Below are positions 45,565 to 61,945 of a DNA stretch of 64,000 nucleotides, piece by piece. This DNA comes from a candidate division WOR-3 bacterium. GTDB taxonomy: Bacteria > Hydrothermota > Tepidihabitantia > SM23-42. The notes below the pieces were generated by a model that saw only the letters and a program-made list of their open reading frames with translations, was not told the origin of the DNA and did no database searches. Position 1 is the stretch's first letter. Each line of letters starts with the position of its first letter. Made by a program: the position numbers and the translations under genes. The stretch is from the NCBI GenBank assembly GCA_029858255.1, contig JAOUFJ010000002.1, positions 138,637-202,636 of the forward strand. The letters run 5' to 3'.

Positions 45565-46599
45565 ATGACTGAAAGCAAGAAGAAAGGCATACTTGCCACG
45601 GTCAAATGCGCGGGCTGAGCTTCGAAACTCTCAGCTGCGCAGTTGGCGCAGGCACTAGCATATTTGCCATCGGTTGAGGATCCTGACCTGCTGGTTGGTA
45701 CGAATACCGCAGACGACGCAGGTGTCTACCGTCTGAACGACGAGCTTGCATTGGTTAAAACGATCGACATTCTCACACCCGTCGTCGAGGACGCGCACAC
45801 TTTCGGCATGATCGCTGCAGCGAACTGCATATCGGACATCTACGCAATGGGCGGTGATCCCAAGTTGGCGCTCAACATCGTTGGGTATCCGGGCATGGGT
45901 GACCCCAAAATCCTCGGTGAAATGCTAAAAGGCGGCAATGACAAGGCGCGGGAAGCCAGCGTCACGACCATCGGCGGTCACACCTTTGCCTCGCCCGAAG
46001 TTATGTATGGTCTTTCAGTTTTAGGCTATATCCATCCCCTGAAAATAATCACGAATGCAGGGGCAAAAACTGACGATGTAATTATCCTGACGAAACCAGT
46101 TGGCGTTGGCACCATAATCCAGGCAATGCTTTTGGATAAAGATGAGGGTATAGACATGAAATCCGTTATAGATTCAATGACCACATTGAATCGAGATGCG
46201 TCAATTGCTATGCGCGCGGCCGGTGCGCACGGTGCGACCGACGTCACGGGATACGGTCTTATCGGTCACCTCGTTGAAATGAGCGAAGCGAGCAAATCAG
46301 GTATCGAAATTTCGCTGCAAAAAATACCAGTACACAAAGGGGCCGTGGAAATTCTGGATCGAGGCATCTTCGAACCAGGTATCACGATGAATCTGAATTC
46401 TTTCAGCAACCGCGTGGATAAGGGCGATAGTGATTCAAATCTTGTCAATTTGATCTTCGGCTCGGAGACTTCTGGCGGGTTGATCATTGCCCTGCCTGAA
46501 GAACGGCTCGAAGTATTCAAACAAAACTACAAAAAAGATTTTGCTGTCATTGGCCGCGTGACAAAGGAAAACGCCGGCCGGGTGACACTGATCCCGTAA
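45565..46599 (+). CDS. selD: Selenide, water dikinase (selenophosphate synthetase), Sec-containing form. In-frame TGA at 45616-45618.
   Basis: ATG 45565 gives 'MTESKKKGILATVKCAG[U]ASKLS...LLVGTNTADDAGVY...AAANCISDIYAMGGDP...DVTGYGLIGHL'. The TGA aligns with Cys17/Sec of SelD 'GAGCGCK'. The ORF-track TTG start at 45643 lies downstream of the catalytic residue. Confidence 0.85.
45619..45651 (+). promoter_or_regulatory. SECIS-like stem-loops immediately 3' of the selD UGA
   Basis: GCTGAG-cttcgaaact-CTCAGC (45614-45635), then CTGCGC-AGTTG-GCGCAG (45635-45651). Loop with G-U about 23-27 nt from the UGA. Confidence 0.55.
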
Positions 46600-46754
46600 C
46601 GACGCGAACCTAATTTCCCAAAAATTTGCCATCGCAGGACTAGAAAGAAATTTCGAATCCGTCACACAGGTCGTAACTCGTATTCGTAATTCGTATTCGT
46701 GAATGTCAAAATAGAGAAGAGTAGTAATGTAAGTTTCGTTGTCCACTGTTTCGG

Positions 46755-46815: not shown

Positions 46816-46905
46816 GAGCAGACCACATTAATTGGCTGGAGCAATCAGCTGCAGATTGTCCTTGACACATTCATAATCCGGGCTATAGTTAGACAGGAGG
46901 TGGTT

Positions 46906-47145
46906 ATGCCAAAATATCTAATTACCCTTCCAAAAATGCCCAAAGAGCAAATAATCACATCTTGAAAGGCGGTTGTTACCGCTTCCGGAGGAAGCAAAAT
47001 CTGCATGGACAAAGCTTATATAGACGAAGAAAACAGTCAGGCGATCTGCTGTTGGAGTGCTCCTGACCGCAAAAGCCTCGAAGAATTATTCGCCAAGGCG
47101 AATGTGCACGTGGAATCAATAAGGAGCGTCACCGAATACAAATAA
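46906..47145 (+). CDS. Candidate small selenoprotein (79 codons, DUF4242-like C-terminal half), in-frame TGA at 46963-46965
   Basis: GGAGG RBS 5 nt before ATG. 'MPKYLITLPKMPKEQIITS[TGA]KAVVTASGGSKICMDKAYIDEENSQAICCWSAPDRKSLEELFAKANVHVESIRSVTEYK'. Hairpin AGGCGGT-TGTT-ACCGCTT just after the TGA. A terminator follows. Confidence 0.4.
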
Positions 47146-47166: not shown

Positions 47167-47196
47167 AAGGGGCGGCGCAAGCCGCCCCTTCTGTTC
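47167..47196 (+). terminator. Rho-independent terminator
   Basis: GGGGCGGC-GCAA-GCCGCCCC followed by TTCTGTT. Confidence 0.7.
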
Positions 47197-47633: not shown

Positions 47634-47930
47634 ATGGCAAATAAATGGGATACGGTCGTAGGCACCACAGAGTACGCTGAAAATCTCGCGAGGATCAATA
47701 AAATAGCACAGGACAATGGGTACGTACTCAATCCCGATGAAGATAGACTCCGAAAAGTAATCGGCCTCATGACTATGAATAACACTGAATTCGGTAAATA
47801 TTATTGTCCATGTAAGCAAAACCACCCGCTGAATCCCCACAAGGATACCCCTTGTCCCTGTCCTGAAATGAAGAATGAGATCTTCAAAGACGGGCATTGT
47901 TTTTGCAGACTATTTTACAGAAGAACGTAG
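47634..47930 (+). CDS. Ferredoxin:thioredoxin-reductase catalytic-subunit-like protein (FTR-like CPC...CPC...CHC protein)
   Basis: 'YYCPCKQNHPLNPHKDTPCPCPEMKNEIFKDGHCFCRLF'. Strong RBS AAAGGAGG. Confidence 0.6.
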   Translation: MANKWDTVVGTTEYAENLARINKIAQDNGYVLNPDEDRLRKVIGLMTMNNTEFGKYYCPCKQNHPLNPHKDTPCPCPEMKNEIFKDGHCFCRLFYRRT

Positions 47931-47940
47931 GAGAAAGAAA

Positions 47941-49200
47941 ATGAACAATCATGAGCAAATGTGGAAGGAATTAGGTCTTGATGTCGAACTACACAAGGAA
48001 TTGCTCAGATCAATCGACAATACTTTCCAACAAACGGTCGGGAAGCAAAACGAACGCCCTGCTTCCATGGCATACTTCGATCATGTCCTACACGAGTCAC
48101 ACGGCGGCCGAGTTGCTGAACTCATCGAAGCCAGAAAAACAGGTAAAAAATTCATCGGCACATTCTGTATCTATGTACCCGACGAGATCGCCATGGCTGC
48201 TGATGCGATCCCAGTGGCGCTTTGCGGCGGAACACAATTCTCTATCCCGTATGGTGAGAAGATGTTTCCTAGGAACATTTGCCCGCTGATCAAATCAACA
48301 TTTGGACTCGCCCTCTCGAAAACCTGCCCCTACGGTCCGATCAAAGACCTGGGCGTTGGCGAAACTACATGCGATGCAAAAAAGAAGGCCTGGGATGTGG
48401 TAAATTTCCACGTTATGGAAGTCCCCCAGAAGAAGACCGATCTGGATTTCAAATTATGGTATCAGGCCGTTTTGGATTTTAAGAACAGGGTTGAAGAACT
48501 CACGGGGAAGAAGGTGGAAGCAAACAGATTGGCTGAAACAATAAATATCATGAATGACAAACGACGCGCGCTTCAGAAATTGAACGAGTATCGCAAATTG
48601 GACCCGCCGACTATCAGCGGTCTCGATGCGCTTGTCGTCATGCAGGCTGCACTCAACGACGATCCTGCCCGGTTCACTGAACATCTTATAGAACTCAACA
48701 ATGAACTCGATGACCGTGTGCACCGGAGTATTTCGCCATTCAGTAAAGGCGTCAAGCGTATTATGATATCAGGTTGTCCTTCTGTCATGGGTAACTGGAA
48801 AGTGCACTCACTGATAGAAAAATCAGGCGCTGCAATTGTTGTGGACGAAACGTGCACCGGGACGCGCTATTTCAACGATCTGGTCGAAGACGGAGCCCAC
48901 GAAATAGATAAACAACTCCGTGCGTTGGCCGACCGTTACATGAAGATAGATTGCGCCTGCTTCTCTCCGAACAACGAGCGTATGAAGTCGATCGAGAGAA
49001 TTGTCGATGACCGCACCGTCGACGGCGTCGTACAATATATTCTTCAATACTGTCACGGTTACAATGTTGAAGCAATAAGGGTCGCCGGCATTCTGAGCAA
49101 GAAAAGCATCCCCAATATCAAAATCGAAACCGATTACGCTGAAGAAGACATGGGACAACTCCGCACGCGTATCGACGCTTTTCTCGAGCAACTAAGTTAA
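47941..49200 (+). CDS. 2-hydroxyacyl-CoA dehydratase / benzoyl-CoA reductase BcrBC-like (HgdAB family, double-cubane-type) protein. Start moved to ATG 47941 after the FTR-like stop.
   Basis: Family-typical C-terminus '...GQLRTRIDAFLEQL'. Cys-rich N-terminal part. Confidence 0.65.
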   Translation: MNNHEQMWKELGLDVELHKELLRSIDNTFQQTVGKQNERPASMAYFDHVLHESHGGRVAELIEARKTGKKFIGTFCIYVPDEIAMAADAIPVALCGGTQFSIPYGEKMFPRNICPLIKSTFGLALSKTCPYGPIKDLGVGETTCDAKKKAWDVVNFHVMEVPQKKTDLDFKLWYQAVLDFKNRVEELTGKKVEANRLAETINIMNDKRRALQKLNEYRKLDPPTISGLDALVVMQAALNDDPARFTEHLIELNNELDDRVHRSISPFSKGVKRIMISGCPSVMGNWKVHSLIEKSGAAIVVDETCTGTRYFNDLVEDGAHEIDKQLRALADRYMKIDCACFSPNNERMKSIERIVDDRTVDGVVQYILQYCHGYNVEAIRVAGILSKKSIPNIKIETDYAEEDMGQLRTRIDAFLEQLS

Positions 49201-49212
49201 GGAGGAACAATA

Positions 49213-49989
49213 ATAACGGCGGGTATCGATATCGGCTCACGCACAATAAAAAGAGTCCTGATGGATGGAAATAAGGTCATTGATTACGCAATAACAGATA
49301 CTGGCGTCGATCTTCCAAAAAATTTCCAGAGCGTATTAGGCGACCAAAAATATGATGCCCTTGTCGCCACTGGATACGGAAGATATCTTGCACAATCGCA
49401 CCTTAATTGCCGTATCATTACGGAAATCAAAGCCTATGCAATCGGCGCTCATTTCCTATTCCCGGACGTGCGCACCATCCTCGATATAGGCGGACAGGAC
49501 AGCAAGGTAATACGTGTGCACGGCGGCAAGGTAAAGGAATTTGAAATGAATGATAAATGCGCCGCTGGAACAGGAAAGTTTCTCGAAGTCATGGCAACCA
49601 CACTTGGATACACTCTGGATGAATTCAGTACCGCTGCTGCAGAAGCCAATGAAGCCGTGGCAATCAATTCTATGTGCACGGTATTTGCCGAGTCTGAAGT
49701 CGTATCTCTGATATCACGCGGAGAAGAACGCGAGAATATCGCGCTCGGTTTACACCAGTCAATACTCAACCGCATTTTGTCCCTCATGGGCAGAACAGGA
49801 TTCGAGGACCCACTGGTTTTTGCCGGAGGCGTGGCAAAGAACGGATGCATGACCATGCTATTGAAAAAGAAATTGAATATGAAAATACTGTCACCGGCCG
49901 AACCCCAGATAGTGGGTGCGATAGGAGCCGCTTTAATGGCAAAACATAAAGACGATGGTCATGGTCCACAAAAAACGAAAGGAGAGTAG
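49213..49989 (+). CDS. HgdC/BcrAD-type ATP-dependent activase (CoA-substrate-specific enzyme activase, ASKHA). It probably starts at a non-ATG codon about 49213.
   Basis: 'GIDIGSRTIK' phosphate-1 motif is encoded upstream of the first ATG (49261). 'NDKCAAGTGKF' is the cluster-ligand motif. GGAGG at 49201. Confidence 0.7.
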   Translation: MTAGIDIGSRTIKRVLMDGNKVIDYAITDTGVDLPKNFQSVLGDQKYDALVATGYGRYLAQSHLNCRIITEIKAYAIGAHFLFPDVRTILDIGGQDSKVIRVHGGKVKEFEMNDKCAAGTGKFLEVMATTLGYTLDEFSTAAAEANEAVAINSMCTVFAESEVVSLISRGEERENIALGLHQSILNRILSLMGRTGFEDPLVFAGGVAKNGCMTMLLKKKLNMKILSPAEPQIVGAIGAALMAKHKDDGHGPQKTKGE

Positions 49990-49990
49990 C

Positions 49991-50782
49991 ATGAAGTACA
50001 TAAAGGACTTCACGATAAAAGACGTGCAGGACGTGTATGATGGTCCTGGAGGACTACTGTGGGAAGCAGTAATGGGAGAACAGATCCACTCAGGCGGTCC
50101 AGAGGCAACCGACGCACTGGCACAAAAGGTTGGGCTCAAGAAAGGTATGGTCGTATGTGACATATGCAGCGCTTTGGGTGCACCGGCACGCCACCTCGCC
50201 TCAAAATACGGTGTCAAGGTCAAAGGCGTCGATGCTACGAAAACGATGCTTGACAAGGCACGACAGCGCACAAAGGAAGCGAAACTCGAAGAACTCATAG
50301 AATACTATGAAGGCAATGCCCTGGACCTTCCTTTCAAGAAAGAAACCTTTGATGTAGTATGGGGTCAGGAAGCATGGTGCTATGTCACTGACAAAAACAG
50401 GCTTATCCAGGAAGCGCACCGCGTGCTCAAGCCAGGTGGCAAGATCGCCTTCACCGACTGGATAATCACTGGAGAGATATCAAAGCAAGAACTCGACCCA
50501 TTGCTCGAGACTATGGCTTTCCCGTACATGGAATCTTTTCAAGGCTATCAGGACCTGCTGAAACAGAACGGCTTTAATGTACTTGAAGCAAGAGACCAGA
50601 CCGACGAATATGCAGAGTGTTTTGATGATTACTACGAAAAAGTGCACGTTGATTTGAAACCTACGATTCTGGATAATTTTGGGAAGGACCTGTTCGACTT
50701 TGCCTCGAACCTGGTAACGATCTGGCAAAAAGCTTCTCACGAACATAAAGTCGGTAGGGGCCTTTTTATCGGACAAAAATAA
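49991..50782 (+). CDS. Class I SAM-dependent methyltransferase
   Basis: 'MVCDICSALGAPARHLA' motif I. 'VLKPGGKIAFTD' motif. Confidence 0.6.
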   Translation: MKYIKDFTIKDVQDVYDGPGGLLWEAVMGEQIHSGGPEATDALAQKVGLKKGMVVCDICSALGAPARHLASKYGVKVKGVDATKTMLDKARQRTKEAKLEELIEYYEGNALDLPFKKETFDVVWGQEAWCYVTDKNRLIQEAHRVLKPGGKIAFTDWIITGEISKQELDPLLETMAFPYMESFQGYQDLLKQNGFNVLEARDQTDEYAECFDDYYEKVHVDLKPTILDNFGKDLFDFASNLVTIWQKASHEHKVGRGLFIGQK

Positions 50783-50895
50783 CGAATACCGGGGCGTCTT
50801 CAATTTTACACAGAGGCACCCCGCAATTGAACCACGTCACGAAAAAAAGTCAGGCTAAACACTTGACTGGGGCATGACGTACCATTATTATACAC

Positions 50896-51543
50896 GTGTT
50901 ATCTGGAGGTTCATTGCTTGAATCGATAAAAGAAGCAGTCATAGAAATGGATGAGGAGAAAGTAAGTGAGCTGGTATCCAGTGCGCTGAACGAAAAGATC
51001 GAGCCGGTTGACATCCTTGAAAAAGGGTTGATCTCCGGAATGCAGGAGGTAGCATCGCTATTCGCACGCAAGGAATACTACGTGCCCGAAGTCCTACTCT
51101 GCTCTGAAGCATTCTACGCGGGATTCGATATATTAAAACCGCTCATCGGAAAATCATCCCGTAAGCCCAAAGCAAGAATTGTGTTTGGCGTAGTGGAAGG
51201 AGACATACACGATATCGGCAAGAATATCGTTAAGGTCATGATGGAAGCAGCAGGCTACGAAGTCGTTGACCTGGGACGTGACGTACCCGTTGAGGACTTC
51301 ATCAAGGCAGTAGACAAAGAAAGACCGGATATACTCGCATTGTCGAGCCTAATGACCACCACAATGACACTTATGGCTGATATACTAAAGGAATTGGAGA
51401 AACGCAACTTGCGTCGTGGATTAAAGGTCATCGTCGGAGGGGCACCGGTGAATGAGGAATTCGCTGCAAGTATCAAGGCCGATGGCTACAGCCCGGATGG
51501 ACCTTCTGCAGTTAGACTGATCGAGAAACTGCTCAGTGGATAG
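50896..51543 (+). CDS. Cobalamin-binding corrinoid protein (MtaC/MtbC-type, B12-binding domain with N-terminal cap)
   Basis: 'GDIHDIGKNIV' DxHxxG motif. Downstream 'SSLM' and 'VGGAP' motifs. Confidence 0.8.
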   Translation: MLSGGSLLESIKEAVIEMDEEKVSELVSSALNEKIEPVDILEKGLISGMQEVASLFARKEYYVPEVLLCSEAFYAGFDILKPLIGKSSRKPKARIVFGVVEGDIHDIGKNIVKVMMEAAGYEVVDLGRDVPVEDFIKAVDKERPDILALSSLMTTTMTLMADILKELEKRNLRRGLKVIVGGAPVNEEFAASIKADGYSPDGPSAVRLIEKLLSG

Positions 51544-52468
51544 AATCTCTGCCGTCATAAATCATCAAAAATATTTTGCCGTATTTCCGATGGTCTGCGC
51601 TGACCACGGCGCGTATCTACTAAACCTCAAATTCAAGGAGGTTGCAGAAGATGGAGAAAAACTCGCCCATGTCCTGCAGTACACCTATGAACTCTATGGC
51701 TACGATATGGTGCTGGTTTTCTCGGATCCCTACGTTGAAGCACAGGCGCTTGGCTGCCCGGTCGAACTTGACCCTTACCCCGCTCTGATCGGATCTGCAA
51801 CGGTGCATTCTGTCGATCGCACTGAAGAGATCATCCATGCGGCGGACATTCTAAGGAGCAGCATCGACGTTCCGATATTCGTTTCCATCAAAGGTCCCTT
51901 CACTCTCGCTGCCTTCCTCGATGGCATCGAGCATTATCTGAAGATAGTTTTGAAAAAAGAAACAGAGGCCTCGCAGCTCTTGCAGGAAGCACTACAATAC
52001 CAACTGGGATATTTGGAGAGAATTTTGTCCGTCGGTGTCAACATTATGATCGGAGACCCCCTCGCATCATCGAGCGTAATATCGCCCGCAATATTCCTGA
52101 AATATGCATTCACAGGGCTAAAGACGATGGTGGCAAAAGCAAAAACTAGCGGCGCAATCGTTGGCGTCCACATCTGTGGAGACGTAGGCGCAATATCAGA
52201 ATATCTTGATGACCTGGACGCTGATATCCTGAGTATAGAAGGCATCAACATTCGGACAGAGACTTTAAAAATGGGTGGTGTAGGAACCGATACGATATTG
52301 AACGGAGACCTGAAATGCATGAGATCAGAGGTGGAAAATGCGTTCAAAAATGAATTCATAATCCTGTCCACAGCGTGCGACGTTCCACCCCACACAGAGC
52401 CGGCAAATATCAAGGCCATGCTCCGATTCGCCCGTGAGTGCGGCCGTGAATATGGAGTACAAAAATGA
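51536..52468 (+). CDS. URO-D-family methyltransferase (MtaA/MtbA/CmuA-like, methylcobamide methyltransferase type)
   Basis: Uroporphyrinogen-decarboxylase-like fold signature regions. Adjacent to the corrinoid protein. Confidence 0.65.
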   Translation: MDRISAVINHQKYFAVFPMVCADHGAYLLNLKFKEVAEDGEKLAHVLQYTYELYGYDMVLVFSDPYVEAQALGCPVELDPYPALIGSATVHSVDRTEEIIHAADILRSSIDVPIFVSIKGPFTLAAFLDGIEHYLKIVLKKETEASQLLQEALQYQLGYLERILSVGVNIMIGDPLASSSVISPAIFLKYAFTGLKTMVAKAKTSGAIVGVHICGDVGAISEYLDDLDADILSIEGINIRTETLKMGGVGTDTILNGDLKCMRSEVENAFKNEFIILSTACDVPPHTEPANIKAMLRFARECGREYGVQK

Positions 52469-53451
52469 AGTTGATCGGCTATGCGTGCTCTTACATACCA
52501 GTCGAAATACTCTCCGCTACTGGATTGCAGCCATACCGACTCCTCCATGGCGATATAGACCTTTCGAAGCAAGGGGAACGCTTCGTAAGGGTAGATGCTT
52601 GTCCCATGGTGAAATCAAATCTCGCTTATGCCATCCAGAATGCAGACAAATTCGCCGCGCTGATTGGTACAACCGGGTGCGACATGTCTCGCAGAATGTT
52701 CGATGTCCTGAGCGAACAGACGAACATACCAGTGTATATGGTGAATAACCCGAGAACCGACAACCCTGCGATGTATAATGATGAAATTGACTGGCTGGTA
52801 AAACAACTCGAACACTTTTCCCATATGAAATTCACCGACGAGATGATCCGGGAAGAAATATCCAAATGGGAAGGAATGCGCGCAGAATTACGGATCATCG
52901 ACGAAAAGAGAGCAGCCCACCCGTCACTCGTATCGACGACAGACTTCCATAGCGTAATGGCCGGCTATCATAAAGGGTCGTTTGATGAGAATGTCACTTT
53001 CTGTCAGAACCCCTCAGATAGACCAAGGTTATACTTATTAGGCAGCGCTATCACGTACGAGGCAAATCATATCCTTCAATTGATAGAAGAAAATCTCCGT
53101 ATTGTAGGTGATTTCAATTGCGGACTTTCTCGACCCCTTCACATCAAGATCGAAGGACAGAGTATCGACGGCATCAAGAAAGCGTATTACAACCAACCGC
53201 CGTGCCTGTACAAAAGACCGCATCAGAAGTACTACGACTTCGTAGCCATGGAGATTGCCAGACTGAGATGCATCGGTATAATTGCATGGACACTGGATTA
53301 CTGCGATGTTCATGAGTTCGAACTGCAGAAGATCGAAAAGGTATTCAACCTCCCGGTATTAAGGATACGGAGTGATTTTTCCTATCAGGGTAACAGCCAG
53401 TTGAGGACACGAATCGAGGCCTTTGCGGAGATGCTATGTTCGAGGATCTAA
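52465..53451 (+). CDS. HgdB/BcrC-like (2-hydroxyacyl-CoA dehydratase family) protein
   Basis: 'MKLIGYACSYIPVEIL' N-terminus. '...QLRTRIEAFAEML' C-terminus. Confidence 0.65.
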   Translation: MKLIGYACSYIPVEILSATGLQPYRLLHGDIDLSKQGERFVRVDACPMVKSNLAYAIQNADKFAALIGTTGCDMSRRMFDVLSEQTNIPVYMVNNPRTDNPAMYNDEIDWLVKQLEHFSHMKFTDEMIREEISKWEGMRAELRIIDEKRAAHPSLVSTTDFHSVMAGYHKGSFDENVTFCQNPSDRPRLYLLGSAITYEANHILQLIEENLRIVGDFNCGLSRPLHIKIEGQSIDGIKKAYYNQPPCLYKRPHQKYYDFVAMEIARLRCIGIIAWTLDYCDVHEFELQKIEKVFNLPVLRIRSDFSYQGNSQLRTRIEAFAEMLCSRI

Positions 53452-54827
53452 TTCCGCAGAAGATCAGTCTCAAGGAGTGGAGCAGACAGTTCCGTATGCT
53501 CGACGATTCGCAAATAAAAAAGTACAGGTATTACACTAATGATGAGTGGGGTCATTATCTGTCTCCGCCGGCAACGTTCATGGTCTACGGTGCCAGGGAA
53601 CTCAGAAAATTGAAATTCGACAATTCACTAGCCGCGCTCAGGCTCTGGGGGTTTACGCTCAATGAATCTGAAAGACTGTTCAGGGCGCGGCAGAGCGGTA
53701 AACGCATAATCGCAACAATGGGCGACCTTGGGACGATACCCGTTATCGCCATGGCGTTTCCTGACTGTATTCCGTTCTACCCCGACTGCACATGGTGGAC
53801 GCCGTTCTTCAACGAATCTACGGTGCTTCTCGATAAGGCGAGTGAACTCGGCACGCCCGAAGCCAGTTGTTTTGTACGTTCAACACTTGCTGCTTTTTAC
53901 AAAATGGCATACTTCCCAAAACCGGATCTGTTGTTTGCATCAACTGGCGCATCCTGCGATGATTACTCGTGTATCATGCAGATGGTTGCAGACCTCGGTT
54001 ATGAATTGAACTGGCTCGAAATCCCCTATCGCAGGAAATTGCGGGACTACCACGCGGAGGAAAAATATTCTGGAACAGAGCATGGTTTTCAATATCCCGA
54101 ACGTTTCGAAACATACTTGGTGAATGAATACAAGCGCGTCTGGCAAAAAATGCAGGCGCTGACCAATATTGGTGATCTCGAAAAACTCAGAGAAAGTATC
54201 AAAAAGAACAACAGACTGCGCCGATTGGTAGATGATATAAAAAACCTTACAACTGAGGCCGACACCGCACCATTTCCCGGTCTTGAGATGATGGTCATAG
54301 AATTCGGCAATCTATATGGCTACGCGGATACCGATGAATGGTTGGACATCCTGGAGATGATCAAAGAAACGGTCACCGGTCGTGTCAAAAAAGGAATCGG
54401 AGTCCTTCATTCGGATGCGATACCACTTGCGTGGGTCACCCCTACCGCAGACCCATTGCTGCTAAATATTGTTGAGGACATGGGCGGCCGTGTCGTGGCG
54501 ACCGAATATGTCATCAACCAGGCACTTACCGAGATCGAGGAAGATATCGAACCCTTCCGCGCCCTTGCCAGGTCGTTCATGAACGCCTCCCTCATCGGTT
54601 CAACCGAAGAGAGAATCCGTCATATTTCCGAAAACATTGCTTCCGGCAGGATCGCAGGAGTCATCATCACCAACATGTTGGGTTGTTCCCATTGTTCAAT
54701 GGAGACTAGGCTAATCGAACAAAATTTGAAAAACGTGCCCGTGCTCGCGATCGACATCCCTGCGCCACTGGGAATAACCGAACAGCTCAAGACACGAATC
54801 GCTGCCTTCATCGAGATGCTGAAATGA
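53436..54827 (+). CDS. HgdA/BcrB-like (2-hydroxyacyl-CoA dehydratase family) protein
   Basis: '...EQLKTRIAAFIEML' C-terminus. 463 aa. Confidence 0.65.
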   Translation: MFEDLIPQKISLKEWSRQFRMLDDSQIKKYRYYTNDEWGHYLSPPATFMVYGARELRKLKFDNSLAALRLWGFTLNESERLFRARQSGKRIIATMGDLGTIPVIAMAFPDCIPFYPDCTWWTPFFNESTVLLDKASELGTPEASCFVRSTLAAFYKMAYFPKPDLLFASTGASCDDYSCIMQMVADLGYELNWLEIPYRRKLRDYHAEEKYSGTEHGFQYPERFETYLVNEYKRVWQKMQALTNIGDLEKLRESIKKNNRLRRLVDDIKNLTTEADTAPFPGLEMMVIEFGNLYGYADTDEWLDILEMIKETVTGRVKKGIGVLHSDAIPLAWVTPTADPLLLNIVEDMGGRVVATEYVINQALTEIEEDIEPFRALARSFMNASLIGSTEERIRHISENIASGRIAGVIITNMLGCSHCSMETRLIEQNLKNVPVLAIDIPAPLGITEQLKTRIAAFIEMLK

Positions 54828-55855
54828 GCGATATTCTGACCCCACGTGAAAGATTTGGACTGCTGGTGATCGATGAAAAACCCGACCGCTGCAATACAAT
54901 ACCATTAATCACATCGCACGCCGCCACGGTCAAAGGTATGAAGCTCAGAGATTATTACACGAATGGTGAGAACATGGCGCGTGCGCAGATAGCAGCAATT
55001 GAAAAATACGGGCACGATGCGATATCAATTTTCTCAGAAGTAGGTATCATCGCTGAAGCAATGGGGACGGAATTCGAATATCCAGAGAACGACCTGCCGA
55101 TCCAGAGGATACCGGCCCTCCAGAAACAGGATATCGAAGAAATCGAGATACCGATCCCGACCTCAGATGCGAGACTCCCGGTGTATCTCGATGCGATTGA
55201 ATATGCTTACGACGCACTCGGCGACAGAATCCCCATACTGGCCTACATTCCTGCTCCATTCACGACCGGAATGATGCTCTCCGACCCGAACAAATTTCTC
55301 ATCCAAACAATCAAGGAACCGGATCATGTCGCGGCGGTCATGGAGAAATCCCTCGCAGCGGCAATCGAATTATGTTACCATGTCATAGATGTCGGTGGAC
55401 TGCCCATTATCGTTGATCCCCTTGCGTCGTCGAGCGTCATTAGCCCCAAAGCATATCAACAATACGCTCTCCCCTATGAAAGAAAACTCATCGATTTTCT
55501 ACACCGTTACGACCTCGATGTTATACTACATATTTGTGGAGACACTACGCCAATTATCCATATCCTTCCGGAGACGCACGCCGACCTTATCAGTATTGAC
55601 CGTGTGAGCCTAGCGGATACAATTGAAAAATTATCTATGAAAATTCGCGTGATCGGCAACTATGACACATCGCTGCTCGCCTTTTCATCCCCGGACGTCA
55701 TAGCACGCGAAGTAAAAGAAATGGTGAAGCTCTCGATGAATGCGCACAAGGGTTACATCGCAGCAACAGGCTGCGAGGTTCCCATCCACGCCCCTTTCGA
55801 AAACGTGACAGCTTTCATAAATGCAGCGAAGGAGAACGGATGGTATTGGGATTAG
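54824..55855 (+). CDS. Second URO-D-family (MtaA-like) methyltransferase
   Basis: Paralogous to 51536..52468. 'DPLASSSVISP' is shared between both. Confidence 0.65.
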   Translation: MSDILTPRERFGLLVIDEKPDRCNTIPLITSHAATVKGMKLRDYYTNGENMARAQIAAIEKYGHDAISIFSEVGIIAEAMGTEFEYPENDLPIQRIPALQKQDIEEIEIPIPTSDARLPVYLDAIEYAYDALGDRIPILAYIPAPFTTGMMLSDPNKFLIQTIKEPDHVAAVMEKSLAAAIELCYHVIDVGGLPIIVDPLASSSVISPKAYQQYALPYERKLIDFLHRYDLDVILHICGDTTPIIHILPETHADLISIDRVSLADTIEKLSMKIRVIGNYDTSLLAFSSPDVIAREVKEMVKLSMNAHKGYIAATGCEVPIHAPFENVTAFINAAKENGWYWD

Positions 55856-56562
55856 ACGTTGGGTCCAGCTACACAAAAGGAATTGTGTTTGACGGCCGGA
55901 TAAGGGACAAGATCGTTTTCAAAACATCATTCAAGCCAAAACTGGCGGTCGAGAGAGCACTGAATGAACTCCGAGGCTACGACAGCATAGTCGCTACTGG
56001 ATTCGGACGGGAGCTCGTCACGACGGCCGACAAGACGATAACGGAAATCACGGCATTTGCCAAAGGTGCATCTTATTTCGAACCTCAGCTTCGAACTATC
56101 ATCGATATCGGCGGGCAGGATAGCAAGATCATCAAAGTCAAAGATGGGCGCGTCGACCGATTTGTCATGAATGACCGCTGTGCGGCTGGGACCGGAAATT
56201 TCGTTGAGAAAATCGCGCAAGCCCTTGACCTAAGCCTGGCCGAATTCGGCGAGTTGGCCGTGCATGCAGACCGTGCTGAAATCATTGATTCACTTTGCGT
56301 GGTCATGGCCGAAACAGAGATTCTTAGTCTCGTTGGAGAAGGTAAACGGCTTGAAGACATCGTTGCCGGGGTGTGCGACGCGCTCGTTCGGCGAATCGAT
56401 GGTATAGGCAGCCAGATAGGCATTGAGGAACCAATATTGTTCTGCGGCGGCGGCGCCCTTAATCCCGGTCTTGTCAAATCGATGAGACGCATATTCAAGG
56501 AAGTCACCATTCCAGAGTATCCCCAATATGTCGGGGCAATTGGCGCTGCACTGTCGCTCTGA
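55840..56562 (+). CDS. Second HgdC/BcrAD-type ATP-dependent activase
   Basis: 'LGLDVGSSYTKG' and 'NDRCAAGTGNF'. ~240 aa. Confidence 0.75.
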   Translation: MVLGLDVGSSYTKGIVFDGRIRDKIVFKTSFKPKLAVERALNELRGYDSIVATGFGRELVTTADKTITEITAFAKGASYFEPQLRTIIDIGGQDSKIIKVKDGRVDRFVMNDRCAAGTGNFVEKIAQALDLSLAEFGELAVHADRAEIIDSLCVVMAETEILSLVGEGKRLEDIVAGVCDALVRRIDGIGSQIGIEEPILFCGGGALNPGLVKSMRRIFKEVTIPEYPQYVGAIGAALSL

Positions 56563-56657: not shown

Positions 56658-58058
56658 GTGAAGGATGCCATGAAAACTAAAGAAATACTGAGAAATATTC
56701 CATCGGTGGATAAAATCCTTAACTGGGATGAAATAAAGGAATCTCTCAAAATCCTCAACCAAGACCATATAACCAGGATCATACGCGATAACGTAGAAAA
56801 CTACCGAAAACTTCTGATTGCCGGTGAAAAAATCGACGATAGTCGTTTGAAAAAAGCAATCTTAGCCGATATCCAGGATCTTATCACTCCCTATTTCTGC
56901 TATGCGGTCAATGCGCTCGGTATTGTTTTGCATACGGGATTGGGCCGTGCACCGTTTAACAAACACATTGCAGAAGTCATCCATGATATGTCCATGGGCT
57001 ATTCACGGTTGCAAATCGATGATGATGGAAAGCGGGCTGACCGCTACAAGAAGATCAATCGCTTGCTTCAGATCTTAACCGGGGCCGAAGCCGGGATCAT
57101 CGTCAACAACAACGCTGCCGCAACAATGCTCATCCTCAGTGCAATGGCAAAAGGCAAAGAGGTAATCGTGTCAAGGGGTCAACTCATTGAGATCGGTGGA
57201 GCATATCGTATTCCAGACATAATGGCGCAGAGCGGTGCGATAATGCACGAAATAGGCACAACCAATAGAACACATCTTAAGGACTATACAGGAGCAATAA
57301 ATGAGAACACAGGTGCGATACTGCGCGTGCACCAGTCAAACTACCGTATTATTGGCTTCACCAAAGAAGTCCCATTGGATGAGCTTGTCGAACTGGGGAG
57401 AAAACACAATATCCCGGTTATCGATGACCTGGGAAGCGGAGCGCTGATCGATTTTGCCGCATATGGACTGCCCAAAGAACCTATGGTACAAGAGAGCATC
57501 GCCACGGGAGCTGACGTAGTCTGTTTCAGCGGCGATAAACTGATCGGCGGACCACAATGCGGAATTATTATCGGTAAGAGGCAACATATAGAGTTAATAA
57601 AGAAAAACCCGCTTACCCGGGCGCTGAGATGCGATAAACTAACTAATGCTGCATTAGAAGCCACGCTTCAAATGTTTCTGCTCAAAGAGGAAGATTTAGT
57701 ATTAAATCACGCCGTTTTGGGCATTTTACTTAAACCATTAGATGAAATAAAATCTCGCGCGAAGCGTTGTGCGAGAGGTCTGAAAGCTGCATTTGGCAGC
57801 ATCCTCGAGGTATCTGTACGCTCGGGCGTCAGTGAGATTGGCGGAGGTTCACTCAGTACAGAACAGCTGCCCACCTATCTGGTGGCTATCAAATCACAAG
57901 ATATCGCGGCAAGCGATCTGGCACATGCCCTGCGGCGATACCAAACACCGGTTTTTACCAGGGTTGCCGAAGACAGTGTTCTCCTCGACTTCCGCACCGT
58001 TGTGAAGGGCGAGGAAAAGATAATACTTGAAGCCTTCAAGACAGTCCTCAAAATCTGA
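56658..58058 (+). CDS. selA: L-seryl-tRNA(Sec) selenium transferase
   Basis: 'IIVNNNAAATMLILSAMAKGKEVIVSRGQLIEIGGAYRIPD...HEIGTTNRTH...FSGDKLIGGPQCGII' aligns with SelA, including the PLP-lysine region. Confidence 0.9.
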   Translation: MKDAMKTKEILRNIPSVDKILNWDEIKESLKILNQDHITRIIRDNVENYRKLLIAGEKIDDSRLKKAILADIQDLITPYFCYAVNALGIVLHTGLGRAPFNKHIAEVIHDMSMGYSRLQIDDDGKRADRYKKINRLLQILTGAEAGIIVNNNAAATMLILSAMAKGKEVIVSRGQLIEIGGAYRIPDIMAQSGAIMHEIGTTNRTHLKDYTGAINENTGAILRVHQSNYRIIGFTKEVPLDELVELGRKHNIPVIDDLGSGALIDFAAYGLPKEPMVQESIATGADVVCFSGDKLIGGPQCGIIIGKRQHIELIKKNPLTRALRCDKLTNAALEATLQMFLLKEEDLVLNHAVLGILLKPLDEIKSRAKRCARGLKAAFGSILEVSVRSGVSEIGGGSLSTEQLPTYLVAIKSQDIAASDLAHALRRYQTPVFTRVAEDSVLLDFRTVVKGEEKIILEAFKTVLKI

Positions 58059-58191: not shown

Positions 58192-60114
58192 GTGATGGAT
58201 ACGAGAAAGAAACACATCGTTATCGGTACCGCGGGACACATTGATCACGGAAAGAGCGCTTTGATAAAAGCACTCACCGGTGTCGACCCGGACCGGCTCA
58301 AGGAGGAGAAAGAGCGAGGTATGACCACAGACCTCGGCTTTGTTTTTTACAGCGCCGATGTAACTATCATCGACGTACCGGGTCATGAAAAATTCGTTCG
58401 GCATATGGTAGCCGGAGCATCGACTATTGACTTCGTGATCTTCGTGGTCGCCGCTGACGATGGAGTAATGCCACAAACGCACGAACACCTTGAGATTCTT
58501 AAACTACTCGGAATAAAAAAGGGTATCGTTGTAATTACAAAGAAAGACCTTGTTGAGAAAGACATGCTGGAAGTAGTAATAGACGATGTGAAGCGTGCCC
58601 TGACTAATTCTTTTCTGGAGAATGCGCCGATCATTAAGGTTTCAAATATCACCAAAGACGGTATCGAAGAACTCAGGAAATGCCTCGACGAGCTGATCAC
58701 TCAGATCGAGCCAAAAACCGACCGTGGTATATTCAGGATGCCTATTGACCGCCGGTTCGTGATAAAAGGATTTGGCACCGTGGTTGCGGGCACGGTTTTA
58801 TCAGGCAAAGTCAAAATAGGGGATACTGTCGAGCTACTACCCGAGAAAAAAAGTGTCAAAGTCAGGGGGATCGAAGTCCATAATGAAAAAGTAGATACCG
58901 TGGGCACTGGATTCCGCGCAGCCATCAACCTTGTAGGCGCTGACAAAGATGAGATCGACCGCGGTGATGTGCTCGCCCAGCCCGGTTTTTATGAACCATC
59001 GGAATACCTGAATGCATCTTTATACCTATTGTCTTCCGCTGGCAAGCCACTGAAGAATTTCAGCAGATTGCGGATACACGTCGGGACAAATGAAATATTC
59101 GGCCGCGTTGTGTTACTCGATAAAAAAACACTCGGACCAGGGCAAAAAGCAATGGTTCAGTTCAGATTGGAATCCCCGGCTGTCTGCGACATCAACGATA
59201 ATTACGTAATAAGATCCTATTCGCCACAAATGACCATTGGTGGCGGCCTCATAATCGAGCCCAAAGCGACAAAAGCAAAGGGGTTTGATGAGGAACTGAT
59301 CAGCCATTTGCAGCGCATGGAAGTCGGTGAACCCGTTGTGATCGTAGAAGAGGATCTATTGGCGAATTTCGATCTTCCAAGGAAACCCGAGGAAATCGCT
59401 CATGATGTTAACCTCCCCCTCGCAGAGACGAAAAACCTCATAGAAAATCTGATACAGCAGGGAAAGATAATATGTCTTGACGAAAAACGCGGGTTTTACT
59501 ATCACCAGAAGAACCATGAAAAACTGAAGGCGCAAATCGTCGAAAATCTTGGCACCTACCACAAGGCGAATCCGACCGGCGTCGGGCTTTCCGCCCTTGA
59601 ACTATTGAAGAATATCAGCCGCGGTCTCGATAAAGTTCTCCTGGACCGTACACTCGCAAAAATGGAAAAGGAGAAAATCGTACGCCTCACGCCAGACGGA
59701 AAGATCAATCTATTCGAGCACAAAGTAGTGGTCGACAAAGACCTCGATGCCACGATCAAAAAAATCGAGCAGCTCTTCATTGAAGGCGGCTATAAACCGC
59801 CCTCTTACCAGGATGTGGTTACCCGCAACCTAGATCCTGAGAACGTCGTAAAGAAAGCGTACCGTTATATGCTCGATACCGGGCTCCTGGTAAATGCCGG
59901 CGAGGGCATTGTCTTGCACCAGAATTATGTTAAAGCAGCAGAGCAAAAACTCATCGAATTCTTGAAGACAAATAAGGAAATAAGAGTCTCCCAGTTCCGC
60001 GACCTGCTCGATGCAAGCCGCAAGTTTGTCCTGCCGCTTCTGATATATTTCGACACGCGCGGTGTCACGATCAAACGAGGCGACGTAAGGGTGTTGGGAC
60101 AAAAATACCGCTAA
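58192..60114 (+). CDS. selB: Selenocysteine-specific elongation factor
   Basis: G-domain 'GTAGHIDHGKSAL', 'DVPGHEKF', 'TKKD'. ~640 aa with C-terminal winged-helix extension. Sits next to selA. Confidence 0.9.
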   Translation: MMDTRKKHIVIGTAGHIDHGKSALIKALTGVDPDRLKEEKERGMTTDLGFVFYSADVTIIDVPGHEKFVRHMVAGASTIDFVIFVVAADDGVMPQTHEHLEILKLLGIKKGIVVITKKDLVEKDMLEVVIDDVKRALTNSFLENAPIIKVSNITKDGIEELRKCLDELITQIEPKTDRGIFRMPIDRRFVIKGFGTVVAGTVLSGKVKIGDTVELLPEKKSVKVRGIEVHNEKVDTVGTGFRAAINLVGADKDEIDRGDVLAQPGFYEPSEYLNASLYLLSSAGKPLKNFSRLRIHVGTNEIFGRVVLLDKKTLGPGQKAMVQFRLESPAVCDINDNYVIRSYSPQMTIGGGLIIEPKATKAKGFDEELISHLQRMEVGEPVVIVEEDLLANFDLPRKPEEIAHDVNLPLAETKNLIENLIQQGKIICLDEKRGFYYHQKNHEKLKAQIVENLGTYHKANPTGVGLSALELLKNISRGLDKVLLDRTLAKMEKEKIVRLTPDGKINLFEHKVVVDKDLDATIKKIEQLFIEGGYKPPSYQDVVTRNLDPENVVKKAYRYMLDTGLLVNAGEGIVLHQNYVKAAEQKLIEFLKTNKEIRVSQFRDLLDASRKFVLPLLIYFDTRGVTIKRGDVRVLGQKYR

Positions 60115-61851: not shown

Positions 61852-61945
61852 TGGCGGAGGCGTGTAGGAATCGAACCTACCGTCCCCCTTTCGAAGGACA
61901 TCCGGGTTTGAAGCCCGTCAGGCACACCAGCACCCATCCGCCTCC
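61852..61945 (-). tRNA. selC: tRNA-Sec (anticodon UCA), about 94 nt, CCA encoded
   Basis: Minus strand GGAGGCGG-A-TGGGTGCTGGTGTGCC-TGA-CGGG-CTTCAAA-CCCG-...-GTCC-TTCGAAAGG-GGAC-GG-TAGG-TTCGATT-CCTA-CA-CGCCTCC-G-CCA. Long acceptor, long variable arm, anticodon TCA. Confidence 0.85.

Follow-up and report, generated by a model that had tools for sequence, protein, structure and literature searches.

Papers that our literature search found to mention DUF4242 proteins (PF14026) concern nickel binding or the transcriptomics of Staphylococcus aureus, and the family includes SCO4226 from Streptomyces coelicolor, a low-affinity nickel binder of known structure (PDB 4OI3, 4OI6) whose nickel ligands are His23, Asp43, Ser46, Glu74 and His76, with His23 serving the site called Ni-2 (PMC4186839). 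Bacterial selenoprotein genes are described by a model of the bacterial selenocysteine insertion sequence (bSECIS) with a loop of 3-9 nt that has a G in its first two positions and mostly reads N1-G-[G|U]-N-N2, an upper stem of 4-16 bp, a minimum free energy of -7.5 kcal/mol or lower and a distance of 16-37 nt from UGA to loop (PMC13188914). The subject of this report is a small gene that brings these two topics together. It lies at 46906-47145, beside the selenophosphate synthetase gene selD, in a stretch of 64,000 nucleotides from a candidate division WOR-3 bacterium (contig JAOUFJ010000002.1, positions 138,637 to 202,636; hereafter the window), and its frame is interrupted by a TGA. We conclude that it is very probably a real gene encoding a selenocysteine (Sec)-containing protein: judged from sequence, every hallmark of SelB-dependent Sec insertion is present.

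The frame opens at ATG 46906, runs through 19 sense codons to TGA 46963-46965 and continues for 59 sense codons to TAA 47143-47145. These limits and the spacing of the preceding GGAGG agree with an initial annotation made from the letters of this DNA, which had also correctly placed the gene beside selD and a strong terminator behind it; selD lies immediately upstream of the gene. The hairpin part of that terminator-like element (47167-47190) folds at -22.5 kcal/mol (z = -2.5), and a consensus scan passed over it because its T-run is interrupted. The same annotation attributed the absence of the gene from the open reading frame (ORF) track to the TGA, and mechanical listing of the locus indeed gives only a 46-codon ORF from ATG 47005.

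A search with the Cys-substituted product against 5.8 billion proteins returned two classes of homologue. Many were 46-residue proteins that begin with the Met behind the TGA, among them NCBI "hypothetical proteins" of candidate division WOR-3 metagenome-assembled genomes (MAGs), and a few were full-length (79-86 residues, 55-78% identity), all on contigs shorter than 1.7 kb and all with Trp, not Cys, at the TGA column. The DNA behind each of these database "W" residues, checked in every case, is a TGA codon; evidently the gene callers had fallen back on genetic code 4 for the short contigs and so written a spurious Trp. We thus rejected the idea of a Trp family that has suffered a nonsense mutation here. 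The two errors in the public calls are systematic (L001-L006, L031, L032 and P0001-P0045), with NCBI JSU64_08285 and JSW49_06665 as examples of the truncation at Met34. At the DNA level, scanning a single genome for each species gave 21 full-length loci, all with TGA at codon 20 and all in WOR-3, Stahlbacteria or unnamed MAGs. Two divergent representatives and a metagenome scan with the alignment of Cys forms contributed 20 further TGA loci. Altogether there are 48 Sec-form loci with 43 distinct gene sequences, reaching down to ~40% protein identity; the homologous codon is TGA in all 48 and TGG in none. Most of the 21 homologues from genomes have an AGGAGG-type site at equal spacing, weakened in a few (GGAGC in L019, GGAGA in L026), and in close relatives a TATAnT box recurs, as far from AGGAGG as in the window. 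When 1.84 billion cluster representatives were searched exhaustively with a profile, only 34 clusters matched, and the family is therefore small. As far as it has been sampled, its members come only from WOR-3, Stahlbacteria and unnamed MAGs.

Six homologues carry Cys at exactly the TGA column, four from the profile search (P0047, STCGAV; P0050, AACTGV; P0051, SACAGV; P0056, KNCEIV) and two more from the metagenome scan (L033 and L045). The codon could be read from DNA in P0047 and L033 (TGC) and in P0051 and L045 (TGT), where translation by table 11 is exact; for P0050 and P0056 the Cys is known from the protein sequence. Counted by locus, TGC or TGT stands at the homologous codon of 5 Cys-form loci. 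The prediction in the initial annotation that Cys would be expected at the TGA thus holds for the closest non-Sec relatives in the subfamily but does not extend to the wider DUF4242 family, in which SCO4226 has His23. One further profile match, P0048 (879 residues, 15 matched stretches), was discarded as a low-complexity repeat drawn in by the artefactual W. The homologue at L006:160-402 (ENA ERZ27256953 k141_4734546) is interrupted a second time, by an in-frame TGA at codon 55 (AAE-TGA-ESVEEL). We do not regard this as a second Sec codon, since no SECIS-like hairpin lies 3' of it and the relatives read CGA or CAA at that codon; a C-to-T lesion, or else an assembly error, in a single contig is the probable cause. 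A single base change would turn TGC, TGT or TGG into TGA, and the extra TGA of L006 does look like a lesion, so that one might suspect a pseudogene or a sequencing error at codon 20 as well. Such a history is vanishingly unlikely given that the same TGA occurs in 43 distinct sequences from independent assemblies, that start, Shine-Dalgarno site and stop are intact and that selection has acted on both sides of the TGA.

Evidence for this selection comes from a comparison of codons in 26 aligned genes and from the ratio of nonsynonymous to synonymous substitution rates (dN/dS), estimated by NG86. The ratio is 0.18 over codons 2-19 and 0.12 over codons 21-78, both well below 1 and indicative of purifying selection in one frame; the gene is coding on each side of the TGA. 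The two alternative frames contain 3-4 stops per gene, and the proposed frame exactly one, with L006 as the exception. Conserved residues vary freely among synonymous codons both 5' of the TGA (Leu5 with 6 codons, Pro9 with 4) and 3' of it (Ala46, Ile47, Leu61 and Val75). The homologues span both sides, and none ends at the TGA position. None of the outcomes that the initial annotation had named as refuting its reading was thus seen.

Within the coding sequence, 21 nt after the UGA, lies a hairpin, GCUUCC-GGA-GGAAGC (46981-46995), that agrees with the bSECIS model in every respect: its stem measures 6 bp, and the loop GGA with its closing C-G pair is equivalent to N1-G-G-N-N2. Its energy is -8.2 kcal/mol alone and -11.0 kcal/mol with flanking pairs. 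RNAalifold picks this hairpin from the alignment (columns 33-38 / 44-49), where pairing is preserved in 94-96% of cells as against 30-62% in slid-partner controls, and not one of 500 shuffles matches the observed pairing or covariation. Compensatory changes affect two pairs: U-A is replaced by C-G in L009 and L019, and the outer pair occurs as U-A, C-G, G-C and U-G. The codons under the stem and loop are frozen. Codon 26 is GCT in 24 of 26 genes, and both instances of GCC co-vary with a change of AGC to GGC; codon 29 is GGA in 26 of 26 and codon 30 is AGC in 21 of 22, whereas the other Ala and Gly codons of the gene show 1.4-1.8 bits of synonymous variation. A divergent subfamily (L031, L048-L052), whose peptide here is K-A-R-R-T-A-E/G-D, has an unrelated hairpin, CCGCC-GGAC-GGCGG, at 22 nt past the UGA, and Cys forms have no such element (L029/L030, L033/L045) or a degraded copy of it (L028: GCUUCC GUG GGAACU). 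Searching Rfam returned no family at the SECIS-like hairpin and, for the intergenic region, only a sub-threshold small RNA match over the terminator hairpin (23 vs 45 bits). The initial annotation had pointed instead to a 7-bp hairpin with a UGUU loop, given as starting 2 nt after the TGA. This structure does form in the window, at -8.9 kcal/mol, but it is not a conserved element: across relatives 57-58% of cells are paired, the same as in column shuffles, and an apparent compensatory change relative to L001 is not general. We therefore rejected it as the SECIS.

The public calls of 46-residue proteins starting at Met34 raise the question of whether the locus makes two products, a 19-residue leader ending at the TGA and a 46-residue protein from ATG 47005, with the hairpin and its GGAGG acting as a ribosome-binding or regulatory element. 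The GGAGG at 46987-46991 sits 13 nt upstream of ATG 47005, and Met34 is kept in 25 of 26 sequences. Yet codons 21-33 show in-frame conservation and purifying selection, and in about half of the relatives GGAGG has become GUUGG, GUAGG or GUGGG while the hairpin is retained. Moreover, no stop interrupts the ORFs of the Cys forms, and of the four aligned full-length ones three keep Met34, which identifies it as a structural residue. The structural model described below is one compact domain, from which a 46-residue product would lose strand beta-1 and helix alpha-1. Taken together, these data make the two-product arrangement very unlikely.

The genes required for Sec insertion are at hand. selA, selB, selC and selD all lie within the same 64-kb window, the first two and the tRNA gene about 10 kb downstream of selD; selB is separated from the tRNA gene by genes for an M48 peptidase and for a '23S rRNA intervening sequence protein'. 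selD is itself of the Sec type and serves as an internal control. Its true start is ATG 45565; mechanical calling gives 45643-46599 and thereby drops the N-terminal 26 residues, including the catalytic Sec. When both strands of the window were scanned for TGA triplets followed 17-24 nt downstream by a stem of at least 5 bp with an N-G-[G/U]-N-N loop, 4 of 2,682 had such a hairpin, and only the sites in selD and in the small gene stand inside frames that are long on both sides. This arrangement exceeds chance expectation by far. We also considered two ways in which the UGA could be read as sense but not as Sec. Calls made with code 4 on short contigs gave full-length products, as would be expected of an ordinary gene in a genome that reads TGA as sense throughout (code 4 or 25). 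However, TGA terminates 20 of the 49 window ORFs of at least 200 residues, selA among them, it is the small gene's own stop in six relatives (L010, L017, L021, L023, L024 and L026), and each gene contains a single internal TGA, always at the same codon. A reassigned code is thus excluded for practical purposes. Alternatively, a near-cognate tRNA for Trp, Cys or Arg could read through the UGA, with the hairpin as a generic stimulator, and it is true that public databases show W at this position. That W is the code-4 artefact and TGG never occurs; relatives with a sense codon have Cys, the usual counterpart of Sec, and the hairpin matches both SelB-type SECIS geometry and the SECIS of selD in the same genome, which possesses the Sec machinery. 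Read-through of this kind therefore strikes us as highly improbable. We favor the Sec-encoding gene, in which SelB carrying Sec-tRNA(Sec) would bind the hairpin 21 nt past the UGA and deliver Sec once the UGA enters the ribosomal A site, the canonical bacterial route.

The initial annotation had likened the C-terminal half of the protein to DUF4242. PF14026 does match that half, and only that half, with E = 1e-5, and a precomputed match is present for most homologues; the score of 26.0 bits falls below the curated cut-off of 28.5. The more specific NF033706 (SCO4226 nickel-binding equivalog) scores 14 bits (E = 0.037), far from its cut-off of 125 bits. A fold search was needed since sequence alone retrieved SCO4226 from the PDB with just E = 0.77. 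We made an AlphaFold2 model of the homologue P0001, which shares 78% identity with the protein of the window. The model has a mean confidence (pLDDT) of 90.8, with a strand at 3-7, a helix at 13-27, strands at 33-40 and 45-51, a helix at 55-64 and a strand at 71-75. Its top PDB match is SCO4226 (4oi6_A; E = 9e-6, TM 0.80/0.78, root-mean-square deviation 2.4 A over 80 columns), followed by generic ferredoxin-like and Atx1/HMA domains (TM ~0.6 for the latter). As modelled, the protein is a single ferredoxin-like domain of the order beta-alpha-beta-beta-alpha-beta with the SCO4226/DUF4242 fold. Membership in the SCO4226 fold holds; equivalence to SCO4226 does not. In two independent alignments, with the 7-residue tag offset of the PDB chain checked against the residues named in the SCO4226 paper, Sec20 falls on His23 and Cys48 on Cys51. 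Among the nickel ligands only Asp43 (D40) is kept: His23 is replaced by Sec, Glu74 by Ser and His76 by Arg or another residue, and Ser46 is variable. The residues invariant across Sec and Cys forms are M1, V23, A37, C48, W50 and F62. Because the second Cys of the CC pair varies (C48 is invariant, C49 is not), position 20 and Cys48 are the only conserved chalcogen residues.

These two residues probably lie near each other, to judge from the topology of the modelled fold. Sec20 is in the middle of helix alpha-1 and Cys48 is on strand beta-3. By fold topology helix alpha-1 would pack over beta-3, and residue 20 would share a helical face with I16/I17 and V23/V24. In SCO4226, Tyr50 and Leu52, which flank Cys51, face the dimer core (PMC4186839), and Cys51, or C48 here, should for that reason point toward the helices. 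Facing each other, Sec20 and Cys48 could form a Se-S dyad capable of a selenenylsulfide or of soft-ligand chelation, and the chemistry of such a dyad might be thiol/selenol redox or the binding of a soft metal or chalcogen.

The genomic neighbourhood offers a hint to function. selD is the only neighbour common to distinct groups, with 11 Sec-form loci in four groups: in the clade of the window it ends 269-316 nt upstream on the same strand, in L016 the gap is 58 nt and in L043 and L046 it is 10 nt, again on the same strand, and in L014 selD is divergent on the other strand. The 10-nt gap suggests an operon or translational coupling. This recurrent linkage suggests a selenium-handling role in part of the family, not a general one. 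It is conceivable, if rather unlikely, that the protein is a dedicated selenium carrier that holds Se on Sec20-Cys48, for example as a perselenide or selenotrisulfide, and hands it to SelD, a reading that would account for the adjacency to selD in four groups, down to 10 nt in one and 58 nt in another. Alternatively, as Sec replaces a nickel-binding His, the residue could be the ligand of a nickel or other soft-metal site.

At loci without selD we looked for a common functional theme and found the neighbours too mixed to hold one (sigma-54 activators, flavodoxin-like proteins, MntP, EPSP synthase, MutL). In L019, L026 and L027, which belong to one subclade, a sigma-54-dependent activator (Sigma54_activat + HTH_8) lies ~250-310 nt upstream on the same strand, and the gene may be regulated differently in those genomes. 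In L021 and L027 a flavodoxin/FMN-reductase-like gene follows downstream on the opposite strand.

Several observations weigh against these interpretations. The unconserved upstream hairpin is slightly more stable in the window than the SECIS-like one (-8.9 vs -8.2 kcal/mol) and competes with it for 4 stem nucleotides. Because the stem core is almost invariant in the main family, classical covariation is limited to the two pairs, with the replacement in the divergent subfamily in addition. The invariant A-S-x-G-S peptide encoded under the hairpin could in principle reflect constraint on the protein, although the frozen synonymous sites argue otherwise. The family assignment has to contend with the PF14026 score just short of its threshold. 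As to function, selD is near only ~10 of the 32 loci whose upstream flank extends to 1.2 kb or more, so that about two thirds lack it nearby, and it is missing from the four Cys-form loci whose flank on that side exceeds 1.2 kb (L029, L030, L033 and L045). The case for the SECIS rests on the combination of frozen synonymous sites, subfamily replacement, geometry and the internal control in selD. Conserved TGA, Cys homologues, SECIS-like hairpin and two-sided selection together support the selenoprotein candidacy that had first been raised for this ORF.

Table. Features of the small selenoprotein gene and of the Sec machinery in the window
Feature	Coordinates	Strand	Remarks
Promoter-like site TTGACA, 16 nt, TATAGT	46862-46889	+	11/12 consensus matches; consensus resemblance only
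Shine-Dalgarno GGAGG	46896-46900	+	5 nt spacing to ATG 46906
Putative selenoprotein coding sequence, 79 codons	46906-47145	+	Conceptual read-through translation MPKYLITLPKMPKEQIITS-U-KAVVTASGGSKICMDKAYIDEENSQAICCWSAPDRKSLEELFAKANVHVESIRSVTEYK, U standing for the TGA; full-length homologues, purifying selection on each side of TGA
Candidate Sec codon UGA, codon 20	46963-46965	+	Same-codon TGA in 48/48 Sec-form loci
Hairpin AGGCGGU-UGUU-ACCGCUU of the initial annotation	46967-46984	+	Local to this sequence, -8.9 kcal/mol, shares 4 nt with SECIS stem
Conserved SECIS-like hairpin GCUUCC-GGA-GGAAGC	46981-46995	+	Stem 46981-46986 / 46990-46995, loop GGA 46987-46989
Codon for Cys48	47047-47049	+	The one Cys kept in all Sec and Cys forms; candidate Sec20 partner
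Terminator-like GC-rich hairpin, 10 bp, GCAA loop	47167-47196	+	Short U-containing tail; hairpin part 47167-47190
selD, selenophosphate synthetase, Sec-type	45565-46599	+	UGA 45616-45618 in VKCAG-U-ASKL
selD SECIS hairpin CUGCGC-AGUUG-GCGCAG	45635-45651	+	22 nt past UGA; kept in six relatives (L007-L011, L016)
selA, selenocysteine synthase	56658-58058	+	PF03841, E = 2e-141
selB, Sec-specific elongation factor	58192-60114	+	GTP_EFTU, Beta-barrel_SelB, SelB-wing_3 (SECIS-binding winged-helix)
tRNA-Sec, anticodon UCA	61852-61945	-	ARAGORN; Rfam RF01852, 75 bits vs 47-bit gathering score

Upstream of the promoter-like site, in the part of the gap nearest selD, imperfect short tandem repeats occupy 46670-46701, with TCGTATTCGT occurring twice (46678-46687 and 46691-46700). 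On the other side, from the small gene to selA (47634-56562), stretches a cluster of the corrinoid methyltransferase type. It encodes a protein like the catalytic subunit of ferredoxin-thioredoxin reductase (FTR; CPC...CPC), three HGD-D-like proteins, two BcrAD/BadFG-type activator ATPases, an S-adenosylmethionine-dependent methyltransferase (with ~90% identity among relatives), a B12-binding protein and two URO-D/MtaA-like proteins. The part with methyltransferase, B12-binding protein and URO-D is also found 3' of the pair of selD and small gene in L016. It would be pure speculation to tie the cluster to methylated selenium or sulfur compounds. The FTR-like ORF (47634-47930) overlaps the listed start of the HGD-D-like ORF (47875-49200) by 56 nt, and the true start of the latter is consequently probably further downstream. 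FTR is a known selenoprotein family (NF041072, CxU), and the FTR-like copy in the window has Cys.

The recoding mechanism is canonical, and the new element is the protein family. As far as we can tell, the DUF4242/SCO4226 fold has not been described in a Sec form before. Table 1 of a May 2026 review gives domain accessions for 119 families and subfamilies of prokaryotic selenoproteins, and neither that table nor the text mentions PF14026, DUF4242, NF033706 or SCO4226, the BSepDB supplementary tables lying outside this comparison (PMC13188914). SCO4226/DUF4242 is likewise not among the nine new families of deep-Sep (2025), our literature search found no paper that combines DUF4242 and selenoprotein, and NCBIfam release 20 has no specific model for the family, with NF033706 as the only, weak match. 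The gene extends the known selenoproteome of the uncultured WOR-3 lineage. Every public call that we retrieved for a Sec-form member is wrong, being either the 46-residue truncation or a code-4 Trp, and a spurious Trp would misdirect searches for Cys homologues and any analysis based on protein alone. For the DUF4242/SCO4226 family the column of Sec or Cys and the invariant Cys48 point to where the active site is likely to be and so provide a testable hypothesis, and the linkage to selD makes the protein a candidate for the step that delivers selenium to selenophosphate synthetase.

How does this protein compare with those already described? It shares with SCO4226 a length of ~80 residues, the fold, the Cys on beta-3 (Cys51 there, C48 here), the A-P motif that follows it and an Asp (Asp43, D40). 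The two are only 15% identical, however; Sec or Cys takes the place of His23, the Ni-1 ligands His76, Glu74 and Ser46 are not conserved, and the hosts are Actinobacteria in one case and the WOR-3 lineage in the other. Small proteins of the HMA type, with the ferredoxin-like/HMA fold, belong to a related alpha+beta class and have Sec and Cys as likely soft ligands. Unlike the protein described here, whose Sec is in mid-helix, 28 residues before the candidate partner Cys on beta-3, they carry their Cys/Sec motif (MxCxxC type) in the beta1-alpha1 loop, and the sequences are unrelated. As a gene, the locus resembles the Sec-type selD and other canonical genes with an intragenic SECIS, having a UGA, a distance of 20-22 nt, a GC-rich stem of 5-6 bp, an N-G-[G/U]-N-N loop, Cys orthologues and a dependence on SelA, SelB, tRNA-Sec and SelD. 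It differs from them in its protein family and in a hairpin that is short by the standards of the model (6 bp, 3-nt loop) and encodes a conserved A-S-x-G-S peptide. YedF/SirA-like and DUF3343 genes are selD-linked and have been proposed to act in selenium supply. The same has been proposed for SclA, which is encoded in a selD operon (PMC13188914). Recurrent adjacency to selD is the feature that the small gene has in common with these supply genes, from which it is set apart by an unrelated fold and by a linkage that is partial.

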